DNA of 64,000 nt, from assembly GCA_041798205.1 (NCBI GenBank), contig JBHCAK010000013.1, forward strand, positions 13,647-77,646, written 5' to 3'. Position 1 is the stretch's first letter; every line of letters starts with the position of its first letter. Origin of the DNA: Sediminibacterium sp. Lineage in GTDB: Bacteria; Bacteroidota; Bacteroidia; Chitinophagales; Chitinophagaceae. Positions 30,425 to 44,835 of the stretch are shown here, piece after piece. The notes under the pieces were generated by a model that had not been told where the DNA came from, did not search any database, and saw only the letters and a list, made by a program, of their open reading frames with translations. A program made the position numbers and the translations under genes.

Positions 30425-30432
30425 CAAAATTA
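30425..30432 (-). promoter_or_regulatory. -7 element TAATTTTG for ispG, using the TAA stop codon of the upstream gene
   Basis: Exact TAnnTTTG match overlapping the class D beta-lactamase stop codon. Confidence 0.55.
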
Positions 30433-31266
30433 GCGTTTCCCTTCCAGGAATCCCTGTTGTTTCAGGATGGCTTTCAGTATATCAAGCCTGATAGGCGTCA
30501 TTTTGGTGTCTGCCGGTCCTTCTACGTTCATAGCAAAGAAGTAAGGATGATGATTCTCCTCAATCCATCCTATCATCCAGCCTAACGCATTGCCGTTGGA
30601 AAGGAATCCCCAGCCACTTTTATAGCTGAGCTGGTAATTGGCATTGCTTTCCTGCAACATGGCCTTTTTAACTATTTCCTGGGTACGTTTCTGAAAATGC
30701 AGCTGACCGAAATACAATTGTTTTACCAATCCCATTTGTTCATCTGCTGTAATTTTCAATGTATTGTTCAGCCAGAAAGTATCAACGGCGCCTCCAATGA
30801 GGTGGTTACCATATTTAAGACTGTCCAGCCAGTGCTGCATGGTGTCTTTACCAATCCTCCTGGCTACTTCCTGGTAATAAGGTATTGCTGAGGCCTTGAA
30901 TGCTTCCAGCATAGTCAGGTCTTTATTCCACAACTTTGCTGTATCGCCGTTGGGGTATTTGCGTATGATCCCATCCCATTTGATGACCATTTTATCATCA
31001 ACGATCTTTCCAGTTTCAAGGCCAACAAGACTATTTACGATTTTGAATGTAGAGGCAGGCAGGTAAGCTGAATCCCTGAACCTTTCAAGATTATAAATGG
31101 TGAATTGCCCTGTTCCATTATCGTAAAGACCGAATGTGCCTTTTACATGTTTTGCATCGAAATATTGTTTGAAACTGTTATTGATGGTAACATTATTCGG
31201 CGAACAGGCTGAAATAACCCATATTGAAATAACAGCGATACAAGCCGTCAGAGATCTGTTCTTCAT
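30430..31266 (-). CDS. class D (OXA-like) serine beta-lactamase family lipoprotein
   Basis: Lipobox ISAC; PASTFK, SAIPYYQ, YGN, FWL, KSGWG, GWMIGW motifs. Confidence 0.88.
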   Translation of the reverse strand: MKNRSLTACIAVISIWVISACSPNNVTINNSFKQYFDAKHVKGTFGLYDNGTGQFTIYNLERFRDSAYLPASTFKIVNSLVGLETGKIVDDKMVIKWDGIIRKYPNGDTAKLWNKDLTMLEAFKASAIPYYQEVARRIGKDTMQHWLDSLKYGNHLIGGAVDTFWLNNTLKITADEQMGLVKQLYFGQLHFQKRTQEIVKKAMLQESNANYQLSYKSGWGFLSNGNALGWMIGWIEENHHPYFFAMNVEGPADTKMTPIRLDILKAILKQQGFLEGKR

Positions 31267-33312: not shown

Positions 33313-34647
33313 TTATCCGTTTACTAATGCATTCATGGCCTTGTGTATTTTCTCAAAATCGAACCCGGCAATCGCTTCCTGCATCATACCTGTAATCTGT
33401 TCGTTACAAAGGTTACCAATACTGCCTTCATGTACGTGGTTCACAGTAGTTGCATGGGTGAATTTGCCTTCTTCTATTGTCATTCCTACCTGCTTGTATG
33501 CGTCACGAAAAGGGGTCCCTTGTAATACCAGCTTGTTCACTTCTTCTACACTGAAAGCATATTTGTATTTTTCATCTGCCAGTATCTGTTCTCGTACGCT
33601 GATATTTTCCAGCATCATTGCAGCCATCTTTACACAATCTTTCAGCGTTTGAAATGCCGGGAACAGGTGCTCCTTGAGCAATTGCAGGTCCCTATGGTAT
33701 CCCGAAGGGAGGTTGGTGGTCATGAGCATGATCTCATTGGGCAACGCTTTGATGCGATTGCAATGCGAACGGATCAGTTCGAATACATCGGGATTCTTTT
33801 TATGAGGCATGATGCTCGACCCCGTGGTGAGCTCTGCCGGAAAACTAATGAAATCAAAATTCTGGTTCAGGTACAAACAAGCATCCATGCTCAGCCTGGA
33901 TAGCGTATCAGCCAGGTTGGCCAGCGCCATTGCCGTGATACGCTCTGCTTTGCCTCGCCCCATTTGGGCATATACCACATTATAATTCAAGTCGGAAAAT
34001 CCAAGGAGTTGGGTAGTCAGTGTTCTGTTGATAGGGAAAGAAGAACCATAACCAGCAGCCGACCCCAACGGATTTTTATTCACTACTTTGAACGCTGCCT
34101 GCAATGTAATCATATCATCTGCCAGGCTCTCTGCATATGCGCCGAACCAAAGTCCGAAAGAAGATGGCATGGCCAGTTGCAGGTGGGTATAACCAGGTAA
34201 AAGATATTGTTTGTATTTCTCGCTTTGTCTGATCAGCAATTGGAAAAAAGACTCCACAACTTCTACCAATGCTTCTATTTCGTAACGCAGGTAAAGTTTT
34301 ACATCTACCAGAACCTGGTCATTACGACTTCTCGCACTGTGTATTTTTTTTCCTGCATCGCCTAATTTGCGGGTAAGCAATAATTCTACTTGCGAATGCA
34401 CGTCTTCAACGCCCGGCTCAATTACAAATGACCCATCCTTACAAAGGGCATAAATATGTTTCAACTCCTCAATAATGGAATCGGCTTCTGCCTGCGTGAG
34501 CAAACCAACTGTTGCAAGCATTCTAGCATGGGCTATTGAGCCCAGTGCATCGAAAGGAGCCAATAACTGATCGAACTCCGGGTCTTTTCCCACGGTAAAT
34601 TCCTCTACTGCATCCGATACATTTGTGTTTTTTTGCCACAGTTTCAT
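33313..34647 (-). CDS. argH: argininosuccinate lyase
   Basis: RSRNDQV, PGYTHLQ, TGSSIMPHKKNPD. Confidence 0.97.
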   Translation of the reverse strand: MKLWQKNTNVSDAVEEFTVGKDPEFDQLLAPFDALGSIAHARMLATVGLLTQAEADSIIEELKHIYALCKDGSFVIEPGVEDVHSQVELLLTRKLGDAGKKIHSARSRNDQVLVDVKLYLRYEIEALVEVVESFFQLLIRQSEKYKQYLLPGYTHLQLAMPSSFGLWFGAYAESLADDMITLQAAFKVVNKNPLGSAAGYGSSFPINRTLTTQLLGFSDLNYNVVYAQMGRGKAERITAMALANLADTLSRLSMDACLYLNQNFDFISFPAELTTGSSIMPHKKNPDVFELIRSHCNRIKALPNEIMLMTTNLPSGYHRDLQLLKEHLFPAFQTLKDCVKMAAMMLENISVREQILADEKYKYAFSVEEVNKLVLQGTPFRDAYKQVGMTIEEGKFTHATTVNHVHEGSIGNLCNEQITGMMQEAIAGFDFEKIHKAMNALVNG

Positions 34648-34665
34648 TTGTTTCGTTTTATCGTT

Positions 34666-35739
34666 TTATAAAACCTGGTCAAGCAGCCTGGTGTATAATG
34701 CAATTCCTTCTTCAATTTCTGAGAGATAAATAAATTCATCTGCCGTATGGCTTCTGGCAGAATCCCCTGGTCCCATTTTCAACGTGGTAAAAGGCATCAG
34801 CGCCTTATCGGAAGTCGTGGGTGATCCATAATAGGTTCGCCCAAGCCTGGTTCCAGCCTGTACCAGCGGATGATCCAGACCAATAGAAGTGGAACGCATA
34901 CGCAAACTCCTGGGTTGTATATCGCTGCGAACATTGGTTTTGATGATTGACAGCACTTCTTCAAATGTATAACATTCATTCACCCTGACATCCACTACAA
35001 AATGACAGGAAGATGGTACTACATTATGTGCCTTGTTTTCCGTTTCTATCACAGTAACCGTCATTTTAACCGGCCCCAGCAAAGGAGATGTTTTATCGAA
35101 CCGGTAACGACGGAACCATTCTATATCGGGTAATGCTTTGTACAAAGCGTTGTCTCCCTCTTCCCTTGCTGCATGCCCTGCTTTACCCGCAGCTATTACA
35201 TCCAATACCAATAGGCCCCTTTCCGCAACAGCCATCTCCATTTGTGTTGGTTCGCCAACAATGCCAAATGCTATCGGAGGCAATTCCGGAACAAGTATTT
35301 CAATACCGTTCCTGCCCGATATTTCTTCTTCTGCGGTAGCAGCCAGTACAATATTATAGTTAAGGTCTGCCCTTTCATAATAGTGTAGAAAAACGGCTAT
35401 CAACGATACCAGCGAACCGCCAGCGTCGTTACTGCCCAATCCAAATAATTTCCCTTTTTTTACCAATGGTTGAAAGGGATCTAATGTATATGCTTTGTTA
35501 GGTTTTACCGTATCGTGATGGGAGTTAAGCAGCACCGATGGTTTGGCAGGATCGAAATGCTTATTCCTTGCCCATACATTGTTGAGATGTCGCTTTACCG
35601 GCACCTGCCTGGATTGCAGGAATTGTTCCAGCAATGCGGCTGTTCCGTCTTCTTCTTTGCTGAATGAAGGAATGGTTATCAGTTGCTGTAATAACCCAAT
35701 AGCATCCTGTACTAATATGGAAGATTCCTGGCTGCTCAT
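34666..35739 (-). CDS. argE: M20 metallohydrolase, ArgE-type N-acyl-citrulline/ornithine deacylase
   Basis: NSHHDTV, GSNDAGG, EEE, GEPT, SHTADE; arg operon context. Confidence 0.85.
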   Translation of the reverse strand: MSSQESSILVQDAIGLLQQLITIPSFSKEEDGTAALLEQFLQSRQVPVKRHLNNVWARNKHFDPAKPSVLLNSHHDTVKPNKAYTLDPFQPLVKKGKLFGLGSNDAGGSLVSLIAVFLHYYERADLNYNIVLAATAEEEISGRNGIEILVPELPPIAFGIVGEPTQMEMAVAERGLLVLDVIAAGKAGHAAREEGDNALYKALPDIEWFRRYRFDKTSPLLGPVKMTVTVIETENKAHNVVPSSCHFVVDVRVNECYTFEEVLSIIKTNVRSDIQPRSLRMRSTSIGLDHPLVQAGTRLGRTYYGSPTTSDKALMPFTTLKMGPGDSARSHTADEFIYLSEIEEGIALYTRLLDQVL

Positions 35740-35742
35740 AGA

Positions 35743-36528
35743 CTAATCTATTTGAATAGTAGTGCCTGCCTGTCCGGTCACCAATTGTTGCAATTGTTCT
35801 GCTTTCCCAATAATGACTTTATGTACCCCGCTTCGTAAGGCTGTAAAAGCATTATCCAGCTTGGGTATCATTCCTGCAAAGATCAGTTCTTTTGTTTTCA
35901 GCTCGGTATAATAATCCGGGTTGATTTTTCCGATGACCGTGCTGTCATCTTTGGCATCCAGCAACACTCCGCTTTTCTCAAACGAATAGATCAATTCAAC
36001 CCGGTACAGGCTGCTCATTGACCTGGCTATTTCCTGCGCAATGGTGTCTGCATTGGTATTCAGCAATTGTCCCTCTTTATCATACGTAATAGGAGCCAGC
36101 ACAATAGTCATATTCTGCTGTAAAAGTGCATGCAGCAATGATATATTCACCTGGTCCACATCTCCTACAAAACCATAGTCGACGCTTGCGTGCTTCCTTT
36201 TGTGGGCCAGGATAGCGTTGCCATCGGCGCCACATAACCCTATTGCATTACAGTTGTTCATTTGCAGCCCGGCCACGATGTTCTTATTGATATAGCCGGC
36301 ATATACCATGGTTACTATTTTCAGGGTTTCTGCATCGGTAATCCTTCTCCCTTCTATCATTTGCTGTTCAATACCCAGGGTAGCCGCCAGTTTTGTGGCC
36401 AGTTTTCCACCCCCGTGTACCAGTATCTTATGCCCTTTCAGTGAAGCGAATGATTGATTGAATGAAGCCAGTTTATCTTCATCGTCTATGATATTACCGC
36501 CAATCTTGATCACATATAAGCTGTTCAT
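35743..36528 (-). CDS. argB: N-acylglutamate kinase
   Basis: VIKIGG, VHGGG, NTNADT, GMIPKL. Confidence 0.95.
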   Translation of the reverse strand: MNSLYVIKIGGNIIDDEDKLASFNQSFASLKGHKILVHGGGKLATKLAATLGIEQQMIEGRRITDAETLKIVTMVYAGYINKNIVAGLQMNNCNAIGLCGADGNAILAHKRKHASVDYGFVGDVDQVNISLLHALLQQNMTIVLAPITYDKEGQLLNTNADTIAQEIARSMSSLYRVELIYSFEKSGVLLDAKDDSTVIGKINPDYYTELKTKELIFAGMIPKLDNAFTALRSGVHKVIIGKAEQLQQLVTGQAGTTIQID

Positions 36529-36539
36529 GCCAGTAAATT

Positions 36540-37505
36540 TTATTTTCCGGTTTTAAGCAGTTCAGATAATACCGACTGAGCAGCCCATACCCTGTTGCCG
36601 GCTTGTTGTGTAACCAAACTGTGCTGGCTATCCAGTATTTCATCACTCAACTCAACATTTCTTCTCACAGGCAAGCAATGCATCACTTTCGCATTATTGC
36701 TTTTCTGTAGTTTTTCTTCGGTGAGCATCCAGGCCGGATCGTTTTCGTAAACCTTTCCGTAATCTGTATAAGTGCTCCAGTTTTTCACGTACACATAATC
36801 TGCATCTTTCAACGCTTCATCCTGGTGATGAGTAATAGTTGCACCTTTGGTAAACTGTTCTGCCAGTTCATAATCATGGGGATGAGTGATCACAAAATCT
36901 GCTTCACCCCATGCGTTCACCCACTGGGCAAAACTGTTGGCCACACATTGCGGCAAAGGCTTGACATGTGGCGCCCACGTAAGTACAATCTTTGGTTTGC
37001 GCTTTGTATCAAGTGAACGGCAATGCTCCCGGATGGTAATGATATCAGTCAGCGACTGTAATGGATGCAGTGTAGCGCTTTCCAGGCTTACCACCGGCAC
37101 CCCGGCATATTTGATGAACTGATTGATGAACATTTCACTGTAATCATCTTCCCTGTTCTTAAGAGACGGGAAAGTGCGTATGCAAAGAATATCAAAATAC
37201 TGCCCCAGTATCGGCGCAGCATCTTTTACGTGCTCTACCGTATTACCACTCATGATGGCTCCTTCTTCAAATTCCAGCGCCCATCCCTCCTTGTCCACAT
37301 TGAATACAATGGCTTCCATACCTAAGTTATGTGCTGCCACCTGTGTACTCAGTCTGGTACGAAGACTTGGATTCAGGAACAATAAACCAATCCGTTTATC
37401 TGCACCAAGATTTCTGTCCATAAAGGGGTTGGCTTTGTATACCAATGCCTTTTCAACCAGTGCATTGATATTGGGAACATCATAGACGGAGATAAACTGT
37501 TTCAT
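36540..37505 (-). CDS. argF: N-acyl-ornithine carbamoyltransferase (ArgF'), N-succinyl type predicted
   Basis: NPSLRTR, GWALEF, GNTVEH, HPLQ, TWAPH, HCLPVRRN. Confidence 0.92.
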   Translation of the reverse strand: MKQFISVYDVPNINALVEKALVYKANPFMDRNLGADKRIGLLFLNPSLRTRLSTQVAAHNLGMEAIVFNVDKEGWALEFEEGAIMSGNTVEHVKDAAPILGQYFDILCIRTFPSLKNREDDYSEMFINQFIKYAGVPVVSLESATLHPLQSLTDIITIREHCRSLDTKRKPKIVLTWAPHVKPLPQCVANSFAQWVNAWGEADFVITHPHDYELAEQFTKGATITHHQDEALKDADYVYVKNWSTYTDYGKVYENDPAWMLTEEKLQKSNNAKVMHCLPVRRNVELSDEILDSQHSLVTQQAGNRVWAAQSVLSELLKTGK

Positions 37506-37531
37506 TGCTTATTATGTTATACTGAATACTA

Positions 37532-38692
37532 TTATGCGTTTTCTGTTGCGTGTGTTGTTATTTCTGCAATGGCTTCCTTCAATACTTCCAGGAATTCATC
37601 TACCTGTTTACGGGTAATGGCCAGGGAAGGCAACAGGCGGATCACATTGGGTTTGGCTTCACCGGTGAAAACATTATGATCAAATAACAATTTTTTCTTC
37701 AGGTCTTTCAACGACTCAGGTACATCAAAGCCAATCATCAGGCCGCGACCCCGCACATTTTGCAGGCCATCAATCGCTTTAAGCCTGTTTAGAAGATATT
37801 GTCCTCTTTGTTTGGCCACTTCAATCAACTGCTCTTTCTCTATCACTTCCAGCACCGCCAATGCTGCTGCGCAGGCCAGTTGGTTCCCTCCAAAAGTAGT
37901 GCCCAGCATCCCGTGCTTGGATTTTATATGGGGCGCAATGAGTATGCCACCGATTGGGAATCCATTACCCATACCTTTCGCCATGGAATAAATATCTGCT
38001 TTCACACCGGCATAATCGTGGGAAAAGAACATTCCGCTTCTGCCATAACCGCATTGCACACTATCGGCTATATATACTGCACCATATTCGTCGCATAATT
38101 GCCTGATGAGTTGTAAAAAAGATTCACTGGCAATATTGATGCCGCCAACGCCCTGTATACCTTCAATGATCACCGCGGTAATCTCTTTTCCTTCTTTTGC
38201 AAAACAATCCCGCAAAGCCTGCTCATCATTGAAAGGAAGGAAAATAACATTGTTTGTTTCATTCACCGGGGCCACAATCGACTTATTATCGGTAGCAGCA
38301 ACAGCCAGTGATGTTCTGCCATGGAATGATTTATTGAAGGCAATCACTTTCTTCCGGCCGGTATGAAAGGACGCGAGTTTAAGTGCATTCTCATTTGCTT
38401 CTGCGCCGCTGTTACAAAGGAACAACTGGTAATCCTGCTTACCACTTACTTCACCCAGTTTCTGAGCCAGCTCCTGTTGAATGGGGATATGAATAGAATT
38501 GGAATAAAAAGCAATCTTCTCCAATTGTTCTTCTACCCGGCGAACCCAATGGGGATGCGTGTGTCCGATACTGATAACAGCATGACCGCCGTACATGTCC
38601 AAATACTGTACTCCGTTTTCATCCCATACATAAGAGCCCAGTGCTTTTGTAATGGTGATGTCGTTGATTGGGTAAACGTCGAATAATTTCAT
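37532..38692 (-). CDS. argD: N-acylornithine aminotransferase
   Basis: CNSGAEANE, FHGRT, EGIQG, DSVQCG, MAKGMG. Confidence 0.93.
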   Translation of the reverse strand: MKLFDVYPINDITITKALGSYVWDENGVQYLDMYGGHAVISIGHTHPHWVRRVEEQLEKIAFYSNSIHIPIQQELAQKLGEVSGKQDYQLFLCNSGAEANENALKLASFHTGRKKVIAFNKSFHGRTSLAVAATDNKSIVAPVNETNNVIFLPFNDEQALRDCFAKEGKEITAVIIEGIQGVGGINIASESFLQLIRQLCDEYGAVYIADSVQCGYGRSGMFFSHDYAGVKADIYSMAKGMGNGFPIGGILIAPHIKSKHGMLGTTFGGNQLACAAALAVLEVIEKEQLIEVAKQRGQYLLNRLKAIDGLQNVRGRGLMIGFDVPESLKDLKKKLLFDHNVFTGEAKPNVIRLLPSLAITRKQVDEFLEVLKEAIAEITTHATENA

Positions 38693-38704
38693 GGTCTTTC
38701 CTTA

Positions 38705-39685
38705 TTAAAAATAGTTTGCTTTCAATTTCAATCCGGCTGTTTCTTCCAGTCCGAATAACAGGTTCATGTTTTGCACTGCTTGTCCGCTCGCACCTTTGAG
38801 CAGATTATCTGTTGCAGTATGTACTGCTATCTTATCACCATGTTTTTCAACATGAATCAGACATTTATTGGTATTCACCACCTGCTTCAGGTCTATCATG
38901 GTATCGCTTACATGGGTAAACGCAGCATTTTTGTAAAAATCCATATACCATTGTTTCACTTCTTCTGAAGAAGCCTTGCAATCGATCACCGAACTCACAT
39001 AAATGCCCCTGGTAAAATCGCCGCGCCAGGGAATAAAATGAACATCTGCCGTATCACTGCCTTGTAATTGTTGCAGGCTTTGACGGATCTCACGTATATG
39101 CTGGTGTTGTAATGTTTTATATGCCTGTACATTATTGGCCCTCCAGCTAAAATGTGACGTAGCATTCAGCCCCTGGCCCGCACCGGTTGATCCGGTAATC
39201 CCGGTGCTATATACATCTGCCAGTATACCCGCCTTGGCCAATGGCAGCAAACCCAATTGTATGGTAGTGGCAAAACAGCCTGGGTTCGCAATGTTTTCTG
39301 CTGCTTTGATCTTTTCCCTGTTCAATTCCGGCAGTCCATAAACAAATTTCCTGTTGCCAATGGATGCTTGCGCCGCCAGCCTGAAATCCTGCGAAAGGTC
39401 AATTACCCTGATCTTTCCCGGAACAGGATGCTGTTCCAGGAATTTCCTGGCATCGCCATGTCCTACACAAAGGAACAGCACATCTATATCATCACTCAGC
39501 GAACCTGTAAAATGAAGGTCTGTTTCACCAGCCAAATCTGCATGTATCTTACTGACCGGGTTGCCTGCATTGCTCATGCTGTGTATGAATACAATGTCAA
39601 CATGGGGATGATTGATCAGCAGGCGAATCATTTCTCCACCTGTATATCCTGCGCCACCAACGATACCCGCTTTGATCTTTTTCAT
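38705..39685 (-). CDS. argC: N-acylglutamyl-phosphate reductase
   Basis: GGAGYTG, ANPGCFAT, GSTGAG, DNLLKGASGQA. Confidence 0.96.
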   Translation of the reverse strand: MKKIKAGIVGGAGYTGGEMIRLLINHPHVDIVFIHSMSNAGNPVSKIHADLAGETDLHFTGSLSDDIDVLFLCVGHGDARKFLEQHPVPGKIRVIDLSQDFRLAAQASIGNRKFVYGLPELNREKIKAAENIANPGCFATTIQLGLLPLAKAGILADVYSTGITGSTGAGQGLNATSHFSWRANNVQAYKTLQHQHIREIRQSLQQLQGSDTADVHFIPWRGDFTRGIYVSSVIDCKASSEEVKQWYMDFYKNAAFTHVSDTMIDLKQVVNTNKCLIHVEKHGDKIAVHTATDNLLKGASGQAVQNMNLLFGLEETAGLKLKANYF

Positions 39686-39688
39686 GAC

Positions 39689-40882
39689 TTACTGGTTGCT
39701 TTCTTTTATATTGTGATAGATAGAGGTCTGATTTCCGAATATCTTCGAAAAACCCCTTACATCTTCTCCGGTCCAGCCATTGTTCATCTCTCCGTACTTA
39801 CCAAATTTGCTGCTCATGAGGTCGTATTTCGATTCAATTCCGATGATCTGAAAATGATAAGGATGCAATTGCACAAACACATCCCCCGTAACATTAGCCT
39901 GTGAATTTTCCAGGTATGCCTCAATATCTCTCATTACAGGGTCAAGGATCTGCCCCTCATGTAACCAGTTGCCATAGAACTGCGCCAGTTGGTCTTTCCA
40001 ACTCAACTGCCATTTGGTTAATACGTGTTTTTCCAGCGCATGGTGCGCTTTCAATATCACCATTGGCGCTGCAGCTTCAAAACCAACCCGGCCTTTGATA
40101 CCGATGATGGTATCGCCTACGTGTATGTCTCTGCCAACGCCATAAGCACCGGCAATGGTTTGCAGGTATTGAATGGCCTGTGACGGATGATCGAATGGCT
40201 GGTCATTCACCATTTTCAATTCCCCCTTTACAAAACCCAGCTTCACTTCTTCAGAACCTGTTTTGCTAACCTGGGTAGGCCAGGCTTCTTCGGGCAACAT
40301 GCCTTTCGAATGCAGCGTTTCTTTGCCGCCAACGCTGGTTCCCCAGAGTCCTTTATTGATAGAGTAAGCGGCTTTGGCAAAATTCATTTCCACTCCTTTA
40401 GATTTCAGGTAGTCTATCTCTTCTTCCCTGCTCAACCTCAGGTCCCGTATGGGGGTAATGATCTCCACACCGGGAATCATGATATGGAAAATCATGTCAA
40501 AACGAACCTGGTCATTGCCCGCACCCGTACTTCCATGCACTACCGCAGCAGCATTCAGTTTTTTGGCATGTTCGGCAATATGCAAAGCCTGACTCAGGCG
40601 CTCGGCACTCACACTAAGCGGATAAGTATTGTTTTTCAGCACATTTCCAAATACCAGGTATTTAATGATACTGTCGTAATAGCTTTTTACAGCATTTACA
40701 GTAGTATGTGTTTTTACACCCAGCTTATACGCATGCTGTTCTATCTGTTTTAATTCCGCTTCATTGAAACCACCTGTATTGACTATTACACTGTGTACTT
40801 CATATCCCTTCTCCTCTGTGAGGTATTTCACACAATACGAAGTATCGAGACCGCCGCTGAATCCAAGAACTACTTTTTGCAT
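39689..40882 (-). CDS. argG: argininosuccinate synthase
   Basis: GFSGGLDTS, HGSTGAGNDQVRF, GRVGFEAAA. Confidence 0.96.
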   Translation of the reverse strand: MQKVVLGFSGGLDTSYCVKYLTEEKGYEVHSVIVNTGGFNEAELKQIEQHAYKLGVKTHTTVNAVKSYYDSIIKYLVFGNVLKNNTYPLSVSAERLSQALHIAEHAKKLNAAAVVHGSTGAGNDQVRFDMIFHIMIPGVEIITPIRDLRLSREEEIDYLKSKGVEMNFAKAAYSINKGLWGTSVGGKETLHSKGMLPEEAWPTQVSKTGSEEVKLGFVKGELKMVNDQPFDHPSQAIQYLQTIAGAYGVGRDIHVGDTIIGIKGRVGFEAAAPMVILKAHHALEKHVLTKWQLSWKDQLAQFYGNWLHEGQILDPVMRDIEAYLENSQANVTGDVFVQLHPYHFQIIGIESKYDLMSSKFGKYGEMNNGWTGEDVRGFSKIFGNQTSIYHNIKESNQ

Positions 40883-40905: not shown

Positions 40906-41616
40906 TTATAGGTGAAAGAAATAATGAAAAAATGATTTAGGCTTGCTCTCAGAACCAGATCCCCCGTTCTCTTTTTTTCTGAACAGGTTTAATAACCTGC
41001 TTTGTTTGATTTTCATGAACCTTTCCCAAAGCTTCGATTTGCTGTTGAACTCTTTGGTGGTTTCCTCCGGTGTATAATGGTCTGCCGGATCGTAGAGCAT
41101 GGCTGTACACATGCAGTTCTTCCTGTCTTTGCTCATCAGGATATCGTAATTGACACAGCTCTTACAGCCAGCCCAGAATTCTTCATCATCTGTGAGTTCA
41201 CTATAAGTAACCGGTTCATAACCCAGTTCGCTATTGATTTTCATTACAGCCAGCCCGGTGGTTAACCCAAATATTTTTGCATTCGGGTACTTTTCCCTCG
41301 ACAGATTGAAAATGGTTCGCTTGATGAGTTTGGCCACCCCGCTTTTCCTGAAAGGGGGCGCAACGATCAGTCCGCTGTTGGCAACAAACTGTTCATGTCC
41401 CCATGCTTCAATATAGCAAAACCCCACCCAGGTGCCATCTGGCAACAAAGCGATCACAGCCTTTCCCTCGGTCATTTTTTGGGCAACATAATCAGGACTC
41501 CGTTTGGCAATCCCGGTACCACGCGCTTTGGCAGATGCTTCCATCTCATCAGTGATGGTTTGCGCATAGTGTGTGTCGCCACTATTGGCTACACGGACTA
41601 TAATATTTTGTTCCAA
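40906..41616 (-). CDS. GNAT-family acyltransferase, first gene of the arg operon (TTG start)
   Basis: GFCYIE, SGLIVAPPFRKSGVA (acyl-CoA motif A), FWAGCKSC...CMCTAM; operon position. Confidence 0.85.
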   Translation of the reverse strand: MEQNIIVRVANSGDTHYAQTITDEMEASAKARGTGIAKRSPDYVAQKMTEGKAVIALLPDGTWVGFCYIEAWGHEQFVANSGLIVAPPFRKSGVAKLIKRTIFNLSREKYPNAKIFGLTTGLAVMKINSELGYEPVTYSELTDDEEFWAGCKSCVNYDILMSKDRKNCMCTAMLYDPADHYTPEETTKEFNSKSKLWERFMKIKQSRLLNLFRKKENGGSGSESKPKSFFHYFFHL

Positions 41617-41680
41617 CTTGAGAAAATTAATAAGTGAAAAAGAAACACTTTTCTATCGAAGATTTCCGGGGGATTTTCCA

Positions 41681-41716
41681 CTGATAGGGGCAAGTGCCAG
41701 TTGCTCGTCCTATCAG
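41681..41716 (-). promoter_or_regulatory. leader hairpin CTGATAGG...CCTATCAG (8-bp stem plus inner 4-bp stem)
   Basis: Perfect 8-bp inverted repeat with an internal GCAA/TTGC stem; overlaps the leader-peptide stop codon. Confidence 0.6.
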
Positions 41717-41784
41717 CAACCACGTCGGGGAGAGGGGTTACTGAGACGTGCAACCAAATTAATATGTGTAAACACTTGTTTCAC
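41713..41784 (-). CDS. putative arg-operon leader peptide MKQVFTHINLVARLSNPSPRRGC (23 aa, GTG start)
   Basis: Manual translation; Arg codons CGT, CGA, CGT with the CGA-CGT pair two codons before the TGA. Confidence 0.55.
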   Translation of the reverse strand: MKQVFTHINLVARLSNPSPRRGC

Positions 41785-41846
41785 TTGTTGAATGCCTTTT
41801 CAGTGATTTGAAGGTGTAAAATTAGTATAGTTTGCAATAAATCTGC

Positions 41847-41868
41847 CCAAATTTTTATGAAAATTTGG
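41847..41868. promoter_or_regulatory. palindrome CCAAATTTT-TATG-AAAATTTGG upstream of the arg leader
   Basis: Perfect 9-bp arms with a 4-nt spacer, between the upstream terminator and the leader ORF. Confidence 0.4.
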
Positions 41869-41911
41869 TTAAGGGGCAGTAGAACACTCGGACTTACGCC
41901 TGTTAGCATGT

Positions 41912-41940
41912 AAAAAGCCGCCCTGCATAAGCAAAGCGGC
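41912..41940 (-). terminator. intrinsic terminator of the outer-membrane protein gene
   Basis: Minus strand GCCGCTTTGC-TTAT-GCAGGGCGGC (10-bp stem with 2 G-U pairs) followed by TTTTT. Confidence 0.8.
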
Positions 41941-41967
41941 CTGGGGATATATACAAGCAACACATGA

Positions 41968-44835
41968 CTATTCAATGCCACCGGGCCTTCCGCCACCCAT
42001 CTGCATCATCTCCCCCACTTTTCTTTCATTACCCCTGAAAAACTGGTGCATGGGGTTGTTATCGTGGTCGCCACGCTGCTGGCTCCCTGCTCCGAAGCGA
42101 CGCAGGTTATAAGTAAAGCTGATCATAAAATAGCGGGTCAGTATTTTATTCCGCACATCCTGCCAGCCGGTGCCGGTAACCTGGCGGGTAAGCGCTACAT
42201 TCTGGTTAAGCAAATCGAAAACATAGAACTTTAATTCGCCTGCTTTGTTCTTCAACATTTGTTTTGACAGACTGACATTCCACAAAGGGATGCTGGTATT
42301 GAAACCTGTACTGCGTCCGCTGCTGTAAGTATAGGCAAAATCGGCAGACAGTATCCATCCATTCCTGGTATAATAAGTGGCTTCGGTAGTAGCTTCCTGT
42401 GTGAGTGTATTGTTATCCTGTTCAGGTTTCAACGTATACCTCGCCATAGTATAAGTGGACGTATAGAAAAAGTTCATGTCAAAATTGTCTTTCAGATTAG
42501 TGGTCCAGGCAATGGTTCCGCCCAATGAATGGTTACGGGTATAATTGCTGAGCCCATTGATCAATGTCTGGCTCTGGCTGCCCGACAGGTTGGCCCGGAG
42601 ATTCATGTTGCTTTTGGGCGATTTCATCTGGAAGCCGTAATTGAAAAAACCATTGATGTTATAGGTGCCATCAAGGTTAACGGGCTTTACCATCTGTCCT
42701 CCGTTGGCCAGCAATGTGGTAGCATTCTCGATATCATGCTCCACCACGCTGGCATTCACCGTAGCAAAAATGAGTTTTCCATTGGCAGCATCATAAGAAT
42801 TATACAACATCCGGAAACTATGCGTGAATTGCTGCTTCAAATCAGGATTACCCACTTTGATGTTCAACGGGTTACTGTTGTCAACCACAGGTTGTAACTG
42901 GTCGATACCGGGCTGTCCTGTTCTTCCATTATAAAAAAACCTGAGGTTGCGGGTCTTGCTGAATGCATAACTAAAATTAGCTGTGGGTGAAAGGTTCACA
43001 TAATCTTGCGCAAGCGTGCTGTCTTTGGTAAGGTTATGGCTGCTGCGATTACCTAATTGCAGTCCCGATCCTATACTGAAATTCATTTTTGCATTCTGAA
43101 TCCGGTAGTTCAGTGAAAAACGACTGGCCTGGTAGGTATTTTCAAAAATATTACTCAGGTTCACAACGGGTAAATCATAATTGTCCGAAACTTTGTTATA
43201 ATTGTAGGTATGCTTTCCCGACGTGTTCCTATTGCCTGAATAATTATAATTCAGTTCGATGAGTTGATGCTTGTCTATCGGTTCTGTATAGGAAACTGTT
43301 GTACTGATACTCCTGGTTTCGGGATTGCTATTGTATACCTGATTTATGGTATCGACCCGTTCAGGCCTGTTAAAATTGGCAAATGTGTGCGTAACAGAAT
43401 TATTGGTACCCGAACCATTGTTCGTATTATGACCCAGGTTCAGGTTCAAAGAAAATGTGCGGCCTCTTTTGGCAAACCTGTGGCGGAATGTGGCATCTAT
43501 TGAAGCATTATATCCCGTGTTGGTACGGGTAGTTCGGAAAACAGAATTACTGATATCTACCAAACTACCTCCCTTACCGCTTCCATAAGAAACATTGGTT
43601 TGACCTGATTCGGTATTGGTTTGCTGAAAACTGATATTGGGTCTGACGATCAATGAATTGCTTGAGTCGAACTGATGTTCGATGTTGAGATCTATACGAT
43701 GGTTTTTGTTGTGTGTAGCTGAAGACTGGTATGACCTGGTGAAAATAGATGAATCCGGAGTCTGTGTGAGCGTTTGCGCATAGCTGTTCTGTTCCCGGTA
43801 AGTACGCTGGTCGTTGTAAAAATAGCTGCCCGATACCTGTGTTTTCCGGCCCCAGGTATCCTTGAAATTGGCGCCTCCTGCCCAGGTATTGACCAGGCCG
43901 CCCCCGCCCATTCCTGCTCCCCCACGATTGACTGCCCCGCCCAATCCACCACCACCTAATGAGCCAAGTATGTCCTTTATCGTGAAATTTTGTTTGTTTG
44001 TATTATTGCCTTGCCCCAGTAAAGTGATCTGTTGGTCGCCATTCATCCGGCTCAGGTTAAAACTGTTGTCGTATAATCCTTCTTCCGTATTCGCACCAAA
44101 ACCGGTCGATGCCTTGCCAAAATATCCTCTCCGCTTATCTTTTCGTGTGGTAATATTGATGGTCTTGACCCTATTGCCATCATCAAAGCCTGTAAAAGCA
44201 CTCTGGTCACTCAGGGCATCGAATATTTGTATCTTATCAATGATATCCGGAGGCAGGTTTTTAGTTGCCATTTTAGGATCGTCACCAAAGAATTTTTTCC
44301 CGTCTACCAATATCCTTTGTACCTGTTCACCCTGCGCTTTCACATTTCCATCCTTATCCACTTCCATACCGGGTATTTTTTTCAATAGATCTTCAGTCAC
44401 TGCATTGGGCTTGGTCTTAAAAGCAGAAGCATTCACCTCCAACGTATCCTTTTTCATTTGTATCGGCGACTGTGTAACTGTTACCATGCCCAGGTCATTG
44501 GCAGCCTGTTTCAGGTAAATCGTTCCCAGGTTTACAGCAGTATTATTTTTTGAAAAACTCAACCTGCGGGTAAAAGTTTCATAGCCCTGAAAATTGATAC
44601 GCACCAGCATGTCGCCGAAAGGAATACCACTGACAGAGAAAGTTCCGTCGGGCCTGGTAAGACTATATGCTTCAATCGAAGAATCTCGCACACCAAGAAC
44701 AGTAACAGATGCATCCTTCATTGATTGTTTCGCAACTGTATCCACCAGTTTCCCACTGATACTTGCAGTGGATTGCGCTACAACGCCTGCCGAAGAGAAC
44801 AATAGTCCGATAACTATTAAGAATGATCTGCTCAT
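41968..44835 (-). CDS. outer-membrane beta-barrel protein with N-terminal carboxypeptidase-regulatory-like domain (TonB-receptor-like)
   Basis: Signal MSRSFLIVIGLLFSSAGVVAQ (start 44835); EDLLKKIPG, ILVDGKKFF, IDKIQIFD plug-like motifs; GNPDLK; C-terminal YFMISFTYNL. Confidence 0.85.
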   Translation of the reverse strand: MSRSFLIVIGLLFSSAGVVAQSTASISGKLVDTVAKQSMKDASVTVLGVRDSSIEAYSLTRPDGTFSVSGIPFGDMLVRINFQGYETFTRRLSFSKNNTAVNLGTIYLKQAANDLGMVTVTQSPIQMKKDTLEVNASAFKTKPNAVTEDLLKKIPGMEVDKDGNVKAQGEQVQRILVDGKKFFGDDPKMATKNLPPDIIDKIQIFDALSDQSAFTGFDDGNRVKTINITTRKDKRRGYFGKASTGFGANTEEGLYDNSFNLSRMNGDQQITLLGQGNNTNKQNFTIKDILGSLGGGGLGGAVNRGGAGMGGGGLVNTWAGGANFKDTWGRKTQVSGSYFYNDQRTYREQNSYAQTLTQTPDSSIFTRSYQSSATHNKNHRIDLNIEHQFDSSNSLIVRPNISFQQTNTESGQTNVSYGSGKGGSLVDISNSVFRTTRTNTGYNASIDATFRHRFAKRGRTFSLNLNLGHNTNNGSGTNNSVTHTFANFNRPERVDTINQVYNSNPETRSISTTVSYTEPIDKHQLIELNYNYSGNRNTSGKHTYNYNKVSDNYDLPVVNLSNIFENTYQASRFSLNYRIQNAKMNFSIGSGLQLGNRSSHNLTKDSTLAQDYVNLSPTANFSYAFSKTRNLRFFYNGRTGQPGIDQLQPVVDNSNPLNIKVGNPDLKQQFTHSFRMLYNSYDAANGKLIFATVNASVVEHDIENATTLLANGGQMVKPVNLDGTYNINGFFNYGFQMKSPKSNMNLRANLSGSQSQTLINGLSNYTRNHSLGGTIAWTTNLKDNFDMNFFYTSTYTMARYTLKPEQDNNTLTQEATTEATYYTRNGWILSADFAYTYSSGRSTGFNTSIPLWNVSLSKQMLKNKAGELKFYVFDLLNQNVALTRQVTGTGWQDVRNKILTRYFMISFTYNLRRFGAGSQQRGDHDNNPMHQFFRGNERKVGEMMQMGGGRPGGIE

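Follow-up and report, generated by a model that had tools for sequence, protein, structure and literature searches.

Arginine biosynthesis is the textbook case of control by the ArgR repressor, as opposed to attenuation, and the arginine operon of this Sediminibacterium genome raises the question of how the pathway is governed where that repressor is missing. The stretch of DNA analyzed here (64,000 nucleotides, hereafter the window) carries no argR, as the first-pass annotation had remarked, and the ArgR C-terminal domain is likewise absent from the whole 99.98%-complete genome. What the window does hold, on its minus strand, is an operon with the gene order GNAT-argG-argC-argD-argF'-argB-argE-argH (gene identities from NCBIfam matches), preceded by a short ORF that reads GTG AAA CAA ... 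CGA CGT GGT TGC TGA and is separated by 96 nt from the TTG start of the operon (Table 1). The 23-codon GTG ORF with its arginine codons, the TGA in the 5' arm of a stem, the U-rich stretch that follows and the TTG operon start had all been described in the first-pass annotation, which took them for a candidate arg attenuator. All of these elements are present, and the reading itself gains support from the conservation of the ORF frame and from covariation in the stem, the two lines of evidence that the annotation had proposed to look for. Judging from the comparative sequence evidence set out below, we consider it probable that the element acts as a ribosome-mediated arginine attenuator in place of the ArgR repressor.

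Table 1. Features of the arginine operon, its leader and the adjoining region, in window coordinates.
Feature	Position	Strand	Remarks
Intrinsic terminator of the upstream outer-membrane-protein gene	41912..41942	-	GGCCGCUUUGCU/UGCAGGGCGGCU stem, then UUUUA; -20.5 kcal/mol
Putative Bacteroidota-type -7 promoter box TAATTTTA	41817..41824	-	32 nt 5' of the leader start codon
Leader ORF, 23 codons, GTG start, TGA stop, unannotated	41713..41784	-	Peptide VKQVFTHINLVARLSNPSPRRGC, then stop; frame conserved in relatives
Putative sensor dicodon CGA CGT	41722..41727	-	Both codons read by tRNA-Arg(ICG) only
Stop-codon hairpin, 36 nt	41681..41716	-	P1 CTGATAGG/CCTATCAG, 8 bp; AC bulge; one G-C pair; A bulge; P2 GCAA/TTGC; loop CTGGCAC
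Conserved single-stranded box GUGGAAAAUCCCCC (GTGGAAAATCCCCC)	41668..41681	-	Consensus GUGRAAAA-N-YCYCC; directly 3' of the hairpin; conserved in alignments
G-poor, U-rich spacer	41617..41680	-	Weak AU hairpin and U-run (41653..41622); reaches the operon start
First operon gene, GNAT acyltransferase (ArgA substitute)	40906..41616	-	Weak GNAT Pfam matches; TTG start at 41616
argG, argC, argD, acetylornithine-type carbamoyltransferase (argF'), argB, ArgE/DapE-family deacylase, argH	33313..40882	-	NCBIfam matches

Since the terminator of the outer-membrane-protein gene stands upstream of the leader, the arg operon forms a separate transcription unit. This terminator was found by sequence reading and folding and is absent from the list returned by a consensus terminator scan. 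On the basis of the -7-like box, transcription is predicted to start 5' of the leader ORF. The Bacteroidota promoter consensus to which such a box belongs is well established, and a TAnnTTT[GA] box is present, mostly 25 to 35 nt 5' of the leader start, in 35 of the 37 loci examined. At the downstream end of the leader region, the GNAT gene (92% identical to its counterpart in S. magnilacihabitans DSM 22423) begins with a TTG GAA start that is kept across relatives. Closer inspection of this initiation region (41636..41614, minus strand) shows that the start codon is TTG in most relatives and GTG or ATG in some, and that a TT[AC]AATTTT box is conserved at about -20 to -10 before it; the region is weak and U-rich and may have a role in control. 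Elsewhere in the window, between ispG and a glycine C-acetyltransferase-like gene, a 278-aa ORF on the minus strand (30430..31266) with STFK, YGN and KSG motifs and a signal-peptide-like N terminus looks like a class D (OXA-type) beta-lactamase.

In one genome alone, the leader is suggestive only. Short ORFs of 15 to 60 codons that end 60 to 150 nt upstream of a gene and carry two adjacent arginines (RR) within their last six residues occur in 73 of the 3,165 upstream regions of this genome (2.3%), so that the significance of the leader has to come from its conservation. ORF ends of this kind with a CGA-CGN dicodon are found in four of the 3,165 regions (0.13%), and the three besides the arg leader, which lie upstream of a DnaJ-domain protein, upstream of a response regulator and in a spurious frame, look like chance occurrences and were discarded. 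Across the orthologous loci, the frame ending in the CGA-CGY dicodon is open in 97 of 113, encoding peptides of about 15 to more than 40 residues; start-codon assignments for some relatives in this set are crude, and the loci are phylogenetically related, such that their counts overstate independence. In each of the 28 loci for which enough upstream sequence was available, the frame that closes with R-R-G-[CF]-TGA has no other stop over 72 nt or more, and an ATG or GTG start is found 57 to 105 nt upstream. A start motif, [AGT]TG-AAR, which was located without regard to frame, shares the frame of the Arg dicodon in 36 of 42 unique loci, compared with about 14 expected by chance. Conservation does not extend to the third arginine codon of the ORF in the window, the CGT at codon 13 (the other two, CGA CGT, are codons 20 and 21), which had been counted as part of the arginine signal in the first-pass annotation. 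Neither Pfam nor NCBIfam contains a family for three representative leader peptides. On the opposite strand, a 72-aa ORF (41573..41791, plus strand) runs antisense to the leader and the hairpin; it is probably spurious, arising from the near-palindromic, stop-poor sequence of the leader.

The second conserved part of the element is the hairpin in which the ORF ends. Its 5' arm CTGATAGG (41716..41709) contains the TGA (41715..41713) and pairs with the 3' arm CCTATCAG (41688..41681). The folding energy of -12.1 kcal/mol is matched by 13 of 1,000 shuffled sequences, and in an alignment of 70 sequences the hairpin is 97% paired, whereas slid registers are only 31 to 49% paired. Compensatory changes are found in 4 of its 13 pairs, with a covariation score that was reached by none of 500 shuffles. 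One P1 pair is U-A in 40 sequences, U.G in 22 and C-G in 3, a series that argues for an RNA structure on this strand, not a DNA operator. When 61 related genomes were searched at the DNA level, 31 gave a match, all of them of the same genus, and a conserved core of about 60 nt (up to 95% identical) is embedded there in diverged flanks. This core starts exactly at CGA CGT, and its variable positions are third positions of codons (CGT/CGC, GGT/GGA). The element is also present in Ferruginibacter, Lacibacter, Ginsengibacter and other Chitinophagaceae. Of 301 genomes from the order that were scanned with a covariance model (R1), 16 contain it, 15 of them within the family, with one strong copy per genome, and all 15 strong matches (E ≤ 3.2e-11) as well as one weaker match lie just 5' of the GNAT gene. 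At the arg-operon loci, the stop codon always occupies the same place in the 5' arm and the Arg dicodon is in frame; in the hairpin-bearing classes, this stop codon is always UGA. A search of Rfam over 41400..42100 gave no credible match at E ≤ 10.

The bulges of the hairpin (AC and A) and the GUGRAAAA-YCYCC box that follows it are almost invariant across genera, and this near-invariance of bulge and flanking bases points to a constraint beyond pairing. The box is not coding, because its indels are not multiples of three; for the same reason, and because the ORF lengths are erratic, we rejected a second coding uORF starting from the GUG at the base of the hairpin. We regard the box as a candidate Rho-loading or pause element. 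A homologous arrangement is found before a second GNAT gene of this genome (genome G000, contig C3:175906-176436, plus strand; locus L185:1324-2040), a stand-alone paralog of 177 aa and 51% identity that none of the other genomes shares among the 61 from the genus. This gene is preceded by a leader and hairpin of its own, in which the TGA lies in the 5' arm of CTGACAGG...CCTGTCAG and is followed by GTGAAC (18.8 bits with model R1), and its leader tail, ...APRY-stop, contains a single AGG and no RR dicodon. This copy has probably been acquired or is decaying. It was considered as a natural control and rejected, since it is unique to this genome and thus uninformative on the mechanism.

Other leaders lack this hairpin and retain the ORF. 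Family members without the stop-codon hairpin keep leader ORFs before GNAT, with the ends ...VRRPRI-stop, ...VRR-stop, ...SRR-stop and ...RPRRPRR-stop, in which CGA-CGN always lies 0 to 4 codons before the stop. Several of these variant leaders place the stop codon in or beside the 5' arm of another hairpin. Read together, these sequences suggest that the ORF is the constant feature and that this hairpin is one variant. Loci L130, L132-L137 and L141, from other Chitinophagaceae genera, carry a different arg leader of 42 to 44 aa (MQKNLTI..RGVFPVQ.RTVF..VRR-stop), whose ORF crosses one or two terminator-like hairpins with U-runs and ends in CGA CGT TGA, a layout that recalls pyrBI-type coupling. 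In another Bacteroidota class (family f48; loci L169 and L179-L184), 21-aa leaders with the pattern MQF.LAHRI...IPRRR-stop precede GNAT and end in CGG CGG CGG TAA; here, a long-range helix AUAGGAUUGA/UCAAUCCUA is predicted between ORF codons 7 to 10 and a conserved box about 50 nt past the stop. A box ACAYAU[CU]A, located about 15 to 20 nt past the leader start (41768..41756, minus strand, in the window), is conserved across leader classes, the distant f48 leaders (CACAUAGG) included; it may serve as a partner in alternative pairing or reflect a constraint on the peptide (T/L-H-I).

We then turn to the arginine codons themselves. The genome has four tRNA-Arg genes, with anticodons ACG, CCG, CCT and TCT only, and hence CGA, CGU and CGC are all read by tRNA-Arg(ICG), which decodes CGA by a weak I.A wobble. 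The codon census comprised 74 unique tails that were located by the hairpin alone, so that it is not circular with the CGACG search. RR is present in 72 of these 74 tails, and 185 of their 203 arginine codons (91%) are ICG-read. CGA, the rarest arginine codon of the genome at 5.5%, makes up 51% of the arginine codons in the tails. At the core positions, CGA is found in 60 of 67 cases, followed by CGT or CGC in 53 of 54, while the neighboring "PRP" arginine is AGA or AGG in 13 of 53 cases. With CGA-CGY prevailing at the core and AGA or AGG admitted at the "PRP" arginine, the pattern suggests that selection acts on the codons as well as on the amino acid. RNA-level constraints could nonetheless contribute part of the CGA conservation.

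ArgR is absent from 35 of 36 family and order genomes, while the control genomes, including Bacteroides thetaiotaomicron, have it. In the region upstream of GNAT in 40 genomes sampled across the phylum, ArgR is found in four, always encoded directly upstream of GNAT and without a leader; at least 13 of the 40 have an Arg-tailed short ORF (e.g., MQFTLAHNIVRIPTPRFPRRR-stop, with CGG CGG CGG), and all of these are without ArgR. An argR upstream of GNAT and an Arg-tailed leader were never found together in this sample. Since the genomes with ArgR lack the leader and those with the leader lack ArgR, the two appear to replace each other.

As to the output step, no coupling of the hairpin to the operon by base pairing was found. 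The first-pass annotation had stated that a strong GC stem with a U-tail is missing, which holds: the best terminator-like hairpin of the spacer, the AAGTG/CACTT stem described there, has an energy of -2.9 kcal/mol, is equaled by 5 of 20 shuffles and, while present in the window, is not conserved according to RNAalifold. Of 94 loci, only 37 have a terminator-like hairpin with a U-run (dG ≤ -4). Applied to the entire leader region, RNAalifold yields the stop-codon hairpin alone and no conserved terminator/antiterminator pair, and constrained folds give no competing helices, the small downstream hairpin forming whatever the state of the stop-codon hairpin. On these grounds, we rejected a classical antiterminator/terminator switch. 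The first-pass annotation had named translational or Rho-dependent control as possible. Simple translational masking of the start site is not supported: the state of the hairpin leaves the predicted accessibility of the GNAT start region unaffected (mean change in unpaired probability 0.006 over 77 loci), and masking of the start by a freed 3' arm was rejected accordingly. A starvation-induced frameshift at CCC-CGA into the +1 frame was also discarded. In the window, this frame runs without a stop across hairpin, spacer and GNAT start, but only 20 of 96 unique loci have it open as far as that start (16 of 96 for the +2 frame). The long-range helix GUGGAAAA:UUUUUCAC, present in some Sediminibacterium, was rejected as a conserved feature because RNAalifold does not recover it.

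The same genome encodes leaders with strong GC-rich, U-tailed terminators on contigs C7 (minus strand, gene starts 132459 and 141485) and C11 (plus strand, gene start 63726), where the genes that follow encode 285 aa (leader peptide MRLFAHIHHHHFLPKG), 474 aa (MKQLINKHWWWHTNSVRGL) and 280 aa (MKTAIANTFFFFFYYFFIQRSRVVFAKA), each peptide ending at a stop codon. These are presumably his, trp and phe attenuators, and since they end in canonical GC-rich terminators, the arg leader is built differently. What its spacer has in common among relatives is length and composition. The spacer measures 96 nt in the window and is confined to 85 to 119 nt elsewhere, and it contains more C than G in 88 of 88 unique spacers, compared with 50% of upstream regions genome-wide; beyond the hairpin, the G content is 7 to 16%. 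The genome also has rho (634 bits). A C-rich, G-poor spacer in a genome that encodes Rho leads us to favor Rho-dependent termination or mRNA decay as the output step.

From these features we infer how the leader would respond to arginine, that is, where the ribosome stalls, in which direction the switch works and by what step it acts on the operon. A ribosome would translate the leader ORF within a transcript begun upstream. When charged tRNA-Arg(ICG) is scarce, it would stall when one of the two sensor codons, CGA or CGT, occupies the A site. Counted from the first base of the CGA, the hairpin begins 11 nt downstream and would thus lie 5 to 8 nt past the codon in the A site, at the mRNA entrance, where it can stay folded. 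When arginine is plentiful, the ribosome would reach the TGA inside the 5' arm and melt the hairpin, since a TGA in the A site puts this arm inside the ribosome; in this way, the hairpin would report whether the ribosome has stopped at the Arg codons or has reached the stop codon. That hairpin formation would depend on ribosome position follows from this geometry and from ribosome footprint sizes, which are well established. The folded hairpin would correspond to the ON state of the operon and the melted hairpin to the OFF state, in which the C-rich 3' arm and the YCYCC box would be exposed to Rho or RNase, so that the transcript would terminate prematurely or decay within the G-poor spacer, ahead of any use of the weak TTG start. 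Some relatives have a real intrinsic terminator, which would add to this OFF step. The weak point of such a hungry-codon model is that the hairpin should refold quickly once the ribosome leaves the stop codon, so that a brief opening would have to suffice for termination.

This refolding problem would be solved by a long-lived ribosome at the stop codon, as expected if the leader were a nascent-peptide arrest sensor of free arginine, in which the P-R-x-R-R-G-C/F peptide blocks release at the UGA, the ribosome keeps the hairpin from closing and, at high arginine, the operon is off. In agreement with this idea, the peptides of the hairpin-bearing classes keep P-R-[PR]-R-[RP]-G-[CFY]-stop as a C-terminal motif at the amino acid level, and UGA is invariable in these classes. 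However, the tails vary by class (RRG[CF]-stop, RRRPGC-stop, RRPRI-stop and VRR-stop, with RRR-stop in another family), and they differ so widely that no single arrest motif emerges; moreover, a purely peptide-level sensor would not predict core codons constrained to CGA and then CGY next to an arginine that uses AGA or AGG. We therefore think peptide arrest unlikely. The near-invariance of the bulges and of the GUGRAAAA-YCYCC box, which exceeds what pairing needs, could alternatively mean that a trans-acting factor, either an RNA-binding protein or a riboswitch-like small ligand, binds the hairpin and boxes and is the real arginine sensor, with the ORF delivering ribosomes or being secondary; in the same vein, no alternative RNA structure accounts for the switch. 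The chances of this being so seem slim, given that there is one element per genome, that the arg-operon loci have a fixed stop position and an in-frame Arg dicodon, and that hairpin-less lineages keep the Arg-dicodon ORF, while a 36-nt hairpin is small for an aptamer and has no match in Rfam.

The remaining explanations dispense with the ORF altogether. An inverted repeat (CTGATAGG...CCTATCAG) near the promoter region, in a clade without ArgR, might be thought a DNA operator for a transcription factor to which the ORF is incidental. This we hold to be very improbable, as the P1 pair with 22 U.G and 3 C-G sequences would, in its U.G form, be a mismatch on DNA or on the other strand, some 100 nt separate the predicted -7 box from the repeat downstream of it, and the in-frame ORF and its codon bias would be left without explanation. 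As to a functionless coincidence of chance ORF and chance hairpin, the frequency of RR-tailed short ORFs in this genome's upstream regions (2.3%) makes the thought a natural one, but conservation across genera despite diverged flanks, together with covariation, frame conservation and codon bias, reduces its probability to almost nothing.

Should the arginine attenuator be confirmed, arginine would join the amino acids that are sensed via tRNA charging by a translating ribosome, and the regulation of the pathway in ArgR-less Bacteroidota would be accounted for: the whole family, and apparently several other Bacteroidota lineages, have no ArgR and carry an Arg-codon leader where others have argR. 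Consisting of two codons and one hairpin, it would also be a very small, well-conserved element in which to study how, with no classical terminator, ribosome position is converted into a decision on transcription or mRNA stability, and this in a phylum where Shine-Dalgarno initiation is not used. Genome annotation, in turn, gains a small-ORF family and an RNA motif that are now missed. Attenuation itself is known; what is new here is its ribosome-mediated form proposed for arginine, with a CGA-CGY sensor and a single stop-codon hairpin and without the classical terminator pair. In the open-access full texts that our search covered, no leader peptide of a Bacteroidota arg operon is described; a Flavobacterium psychrophilum transcriptome paper speaks of leader-peptide attenuation upstream of amino acid operons in general terms only. 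It is tempting to go further and to speculate that Bacteroidota which have lost ArgR control arginine synthesis with a family of Arg-tailed leaders, that in the Chitinophagaceae version a single stop-codon hairpin, with no terminator/antiterminator pair, gates the access of Rho or RNase to a C-rich tract according to whether the ribosome stalls at CGA-CGY or reaches the stop, and that this would be a distinct, minimal architecture for amino acid attenuation and the first attenuator of a bacterial arginine biosynthetic operon, a fuller claim that we advance tentatively, as possible and somewhat short of probable.

How does the arg leader compare with known systems? With the classical attenuators (trpL, hisL, pheL, thrL and leuL) it shares a short ORF before an amino acid biosynthetic operon, predicted in this case to lie within the 5' leader transcript, with cognate codons near the stop and, as proposed, an RNA structure decided by the position of the ribosome; as in trpL, there are only two tandem control codons near the end of the ORF. 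It differs from them in the amino acid, arginine, in having no Rfam match and in lacking a conserved terminator/antiterminator, its sole conserved structure being the hairpin that contains the stop codon. Because alternative terminator/antiterminator hairpins were looked for and not found, the arg leader would be attenuator-like in its working and yet lie outside the classical structural class. ArgR with its ARG boxes plays the same role, feedback control of arg genes, but does so as a protein repressor on DNA; in other Bacteroidota, argR lies exactly at the place of the leader, directly upstream of GNAT. The fungal arginine attenuator peptide (the arg-2/CPA1 uORF; Pfam Leader_CPA1) is likewise an upstream ORF of about 24 codons before an arginine biosynthesis gene, which it controls according to the arginine supply, as is proposed here. 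In contrast to the proposed leader, it works by way of its nascent peptide and of free arginine, stalls at the stop codon, blocks eukaryotic scanning and is independent of codon choice; the sequences show no similarity, and the Pfam scan gave no match.

On the side of the output step, mgtL/mgtA, corA and tnaC offer precedents in which translation of a leader ORF gates the access of Rho to a C-rich site beside the ORF, as we propose for the arg leader. These systems sense other signals (proline/Mg2+, tryptophan), and in tnaC it is a ribosome stalled at the stop codon that shuts Rho out, whereas in the arg leader a role for Rho is suggested by composition and by the presence of rho. A close parallel in logic is orf34 (speFL) of the Salmonella speF-potE operon. 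[quoted passage not shown] This leader belongs to gamma-proteobacteria, is unrelated in sequence to the arg leader and controls a polyamine gene, not arginine synthesis. Its Arg codons stand at positions 12 and 13 of 34 and not at the end, it senses ornithine too, and any Arg codons work, while CGA-CGY appears to be selected in the arg leader. The logic, nevertheless, would be the same in orf34-speF and in the proposed arg leader: a pause at Arg codons keeps the hairpin and the message active, and a ribosome that reaches the stop codon removes the hairpin and renders it inactive.
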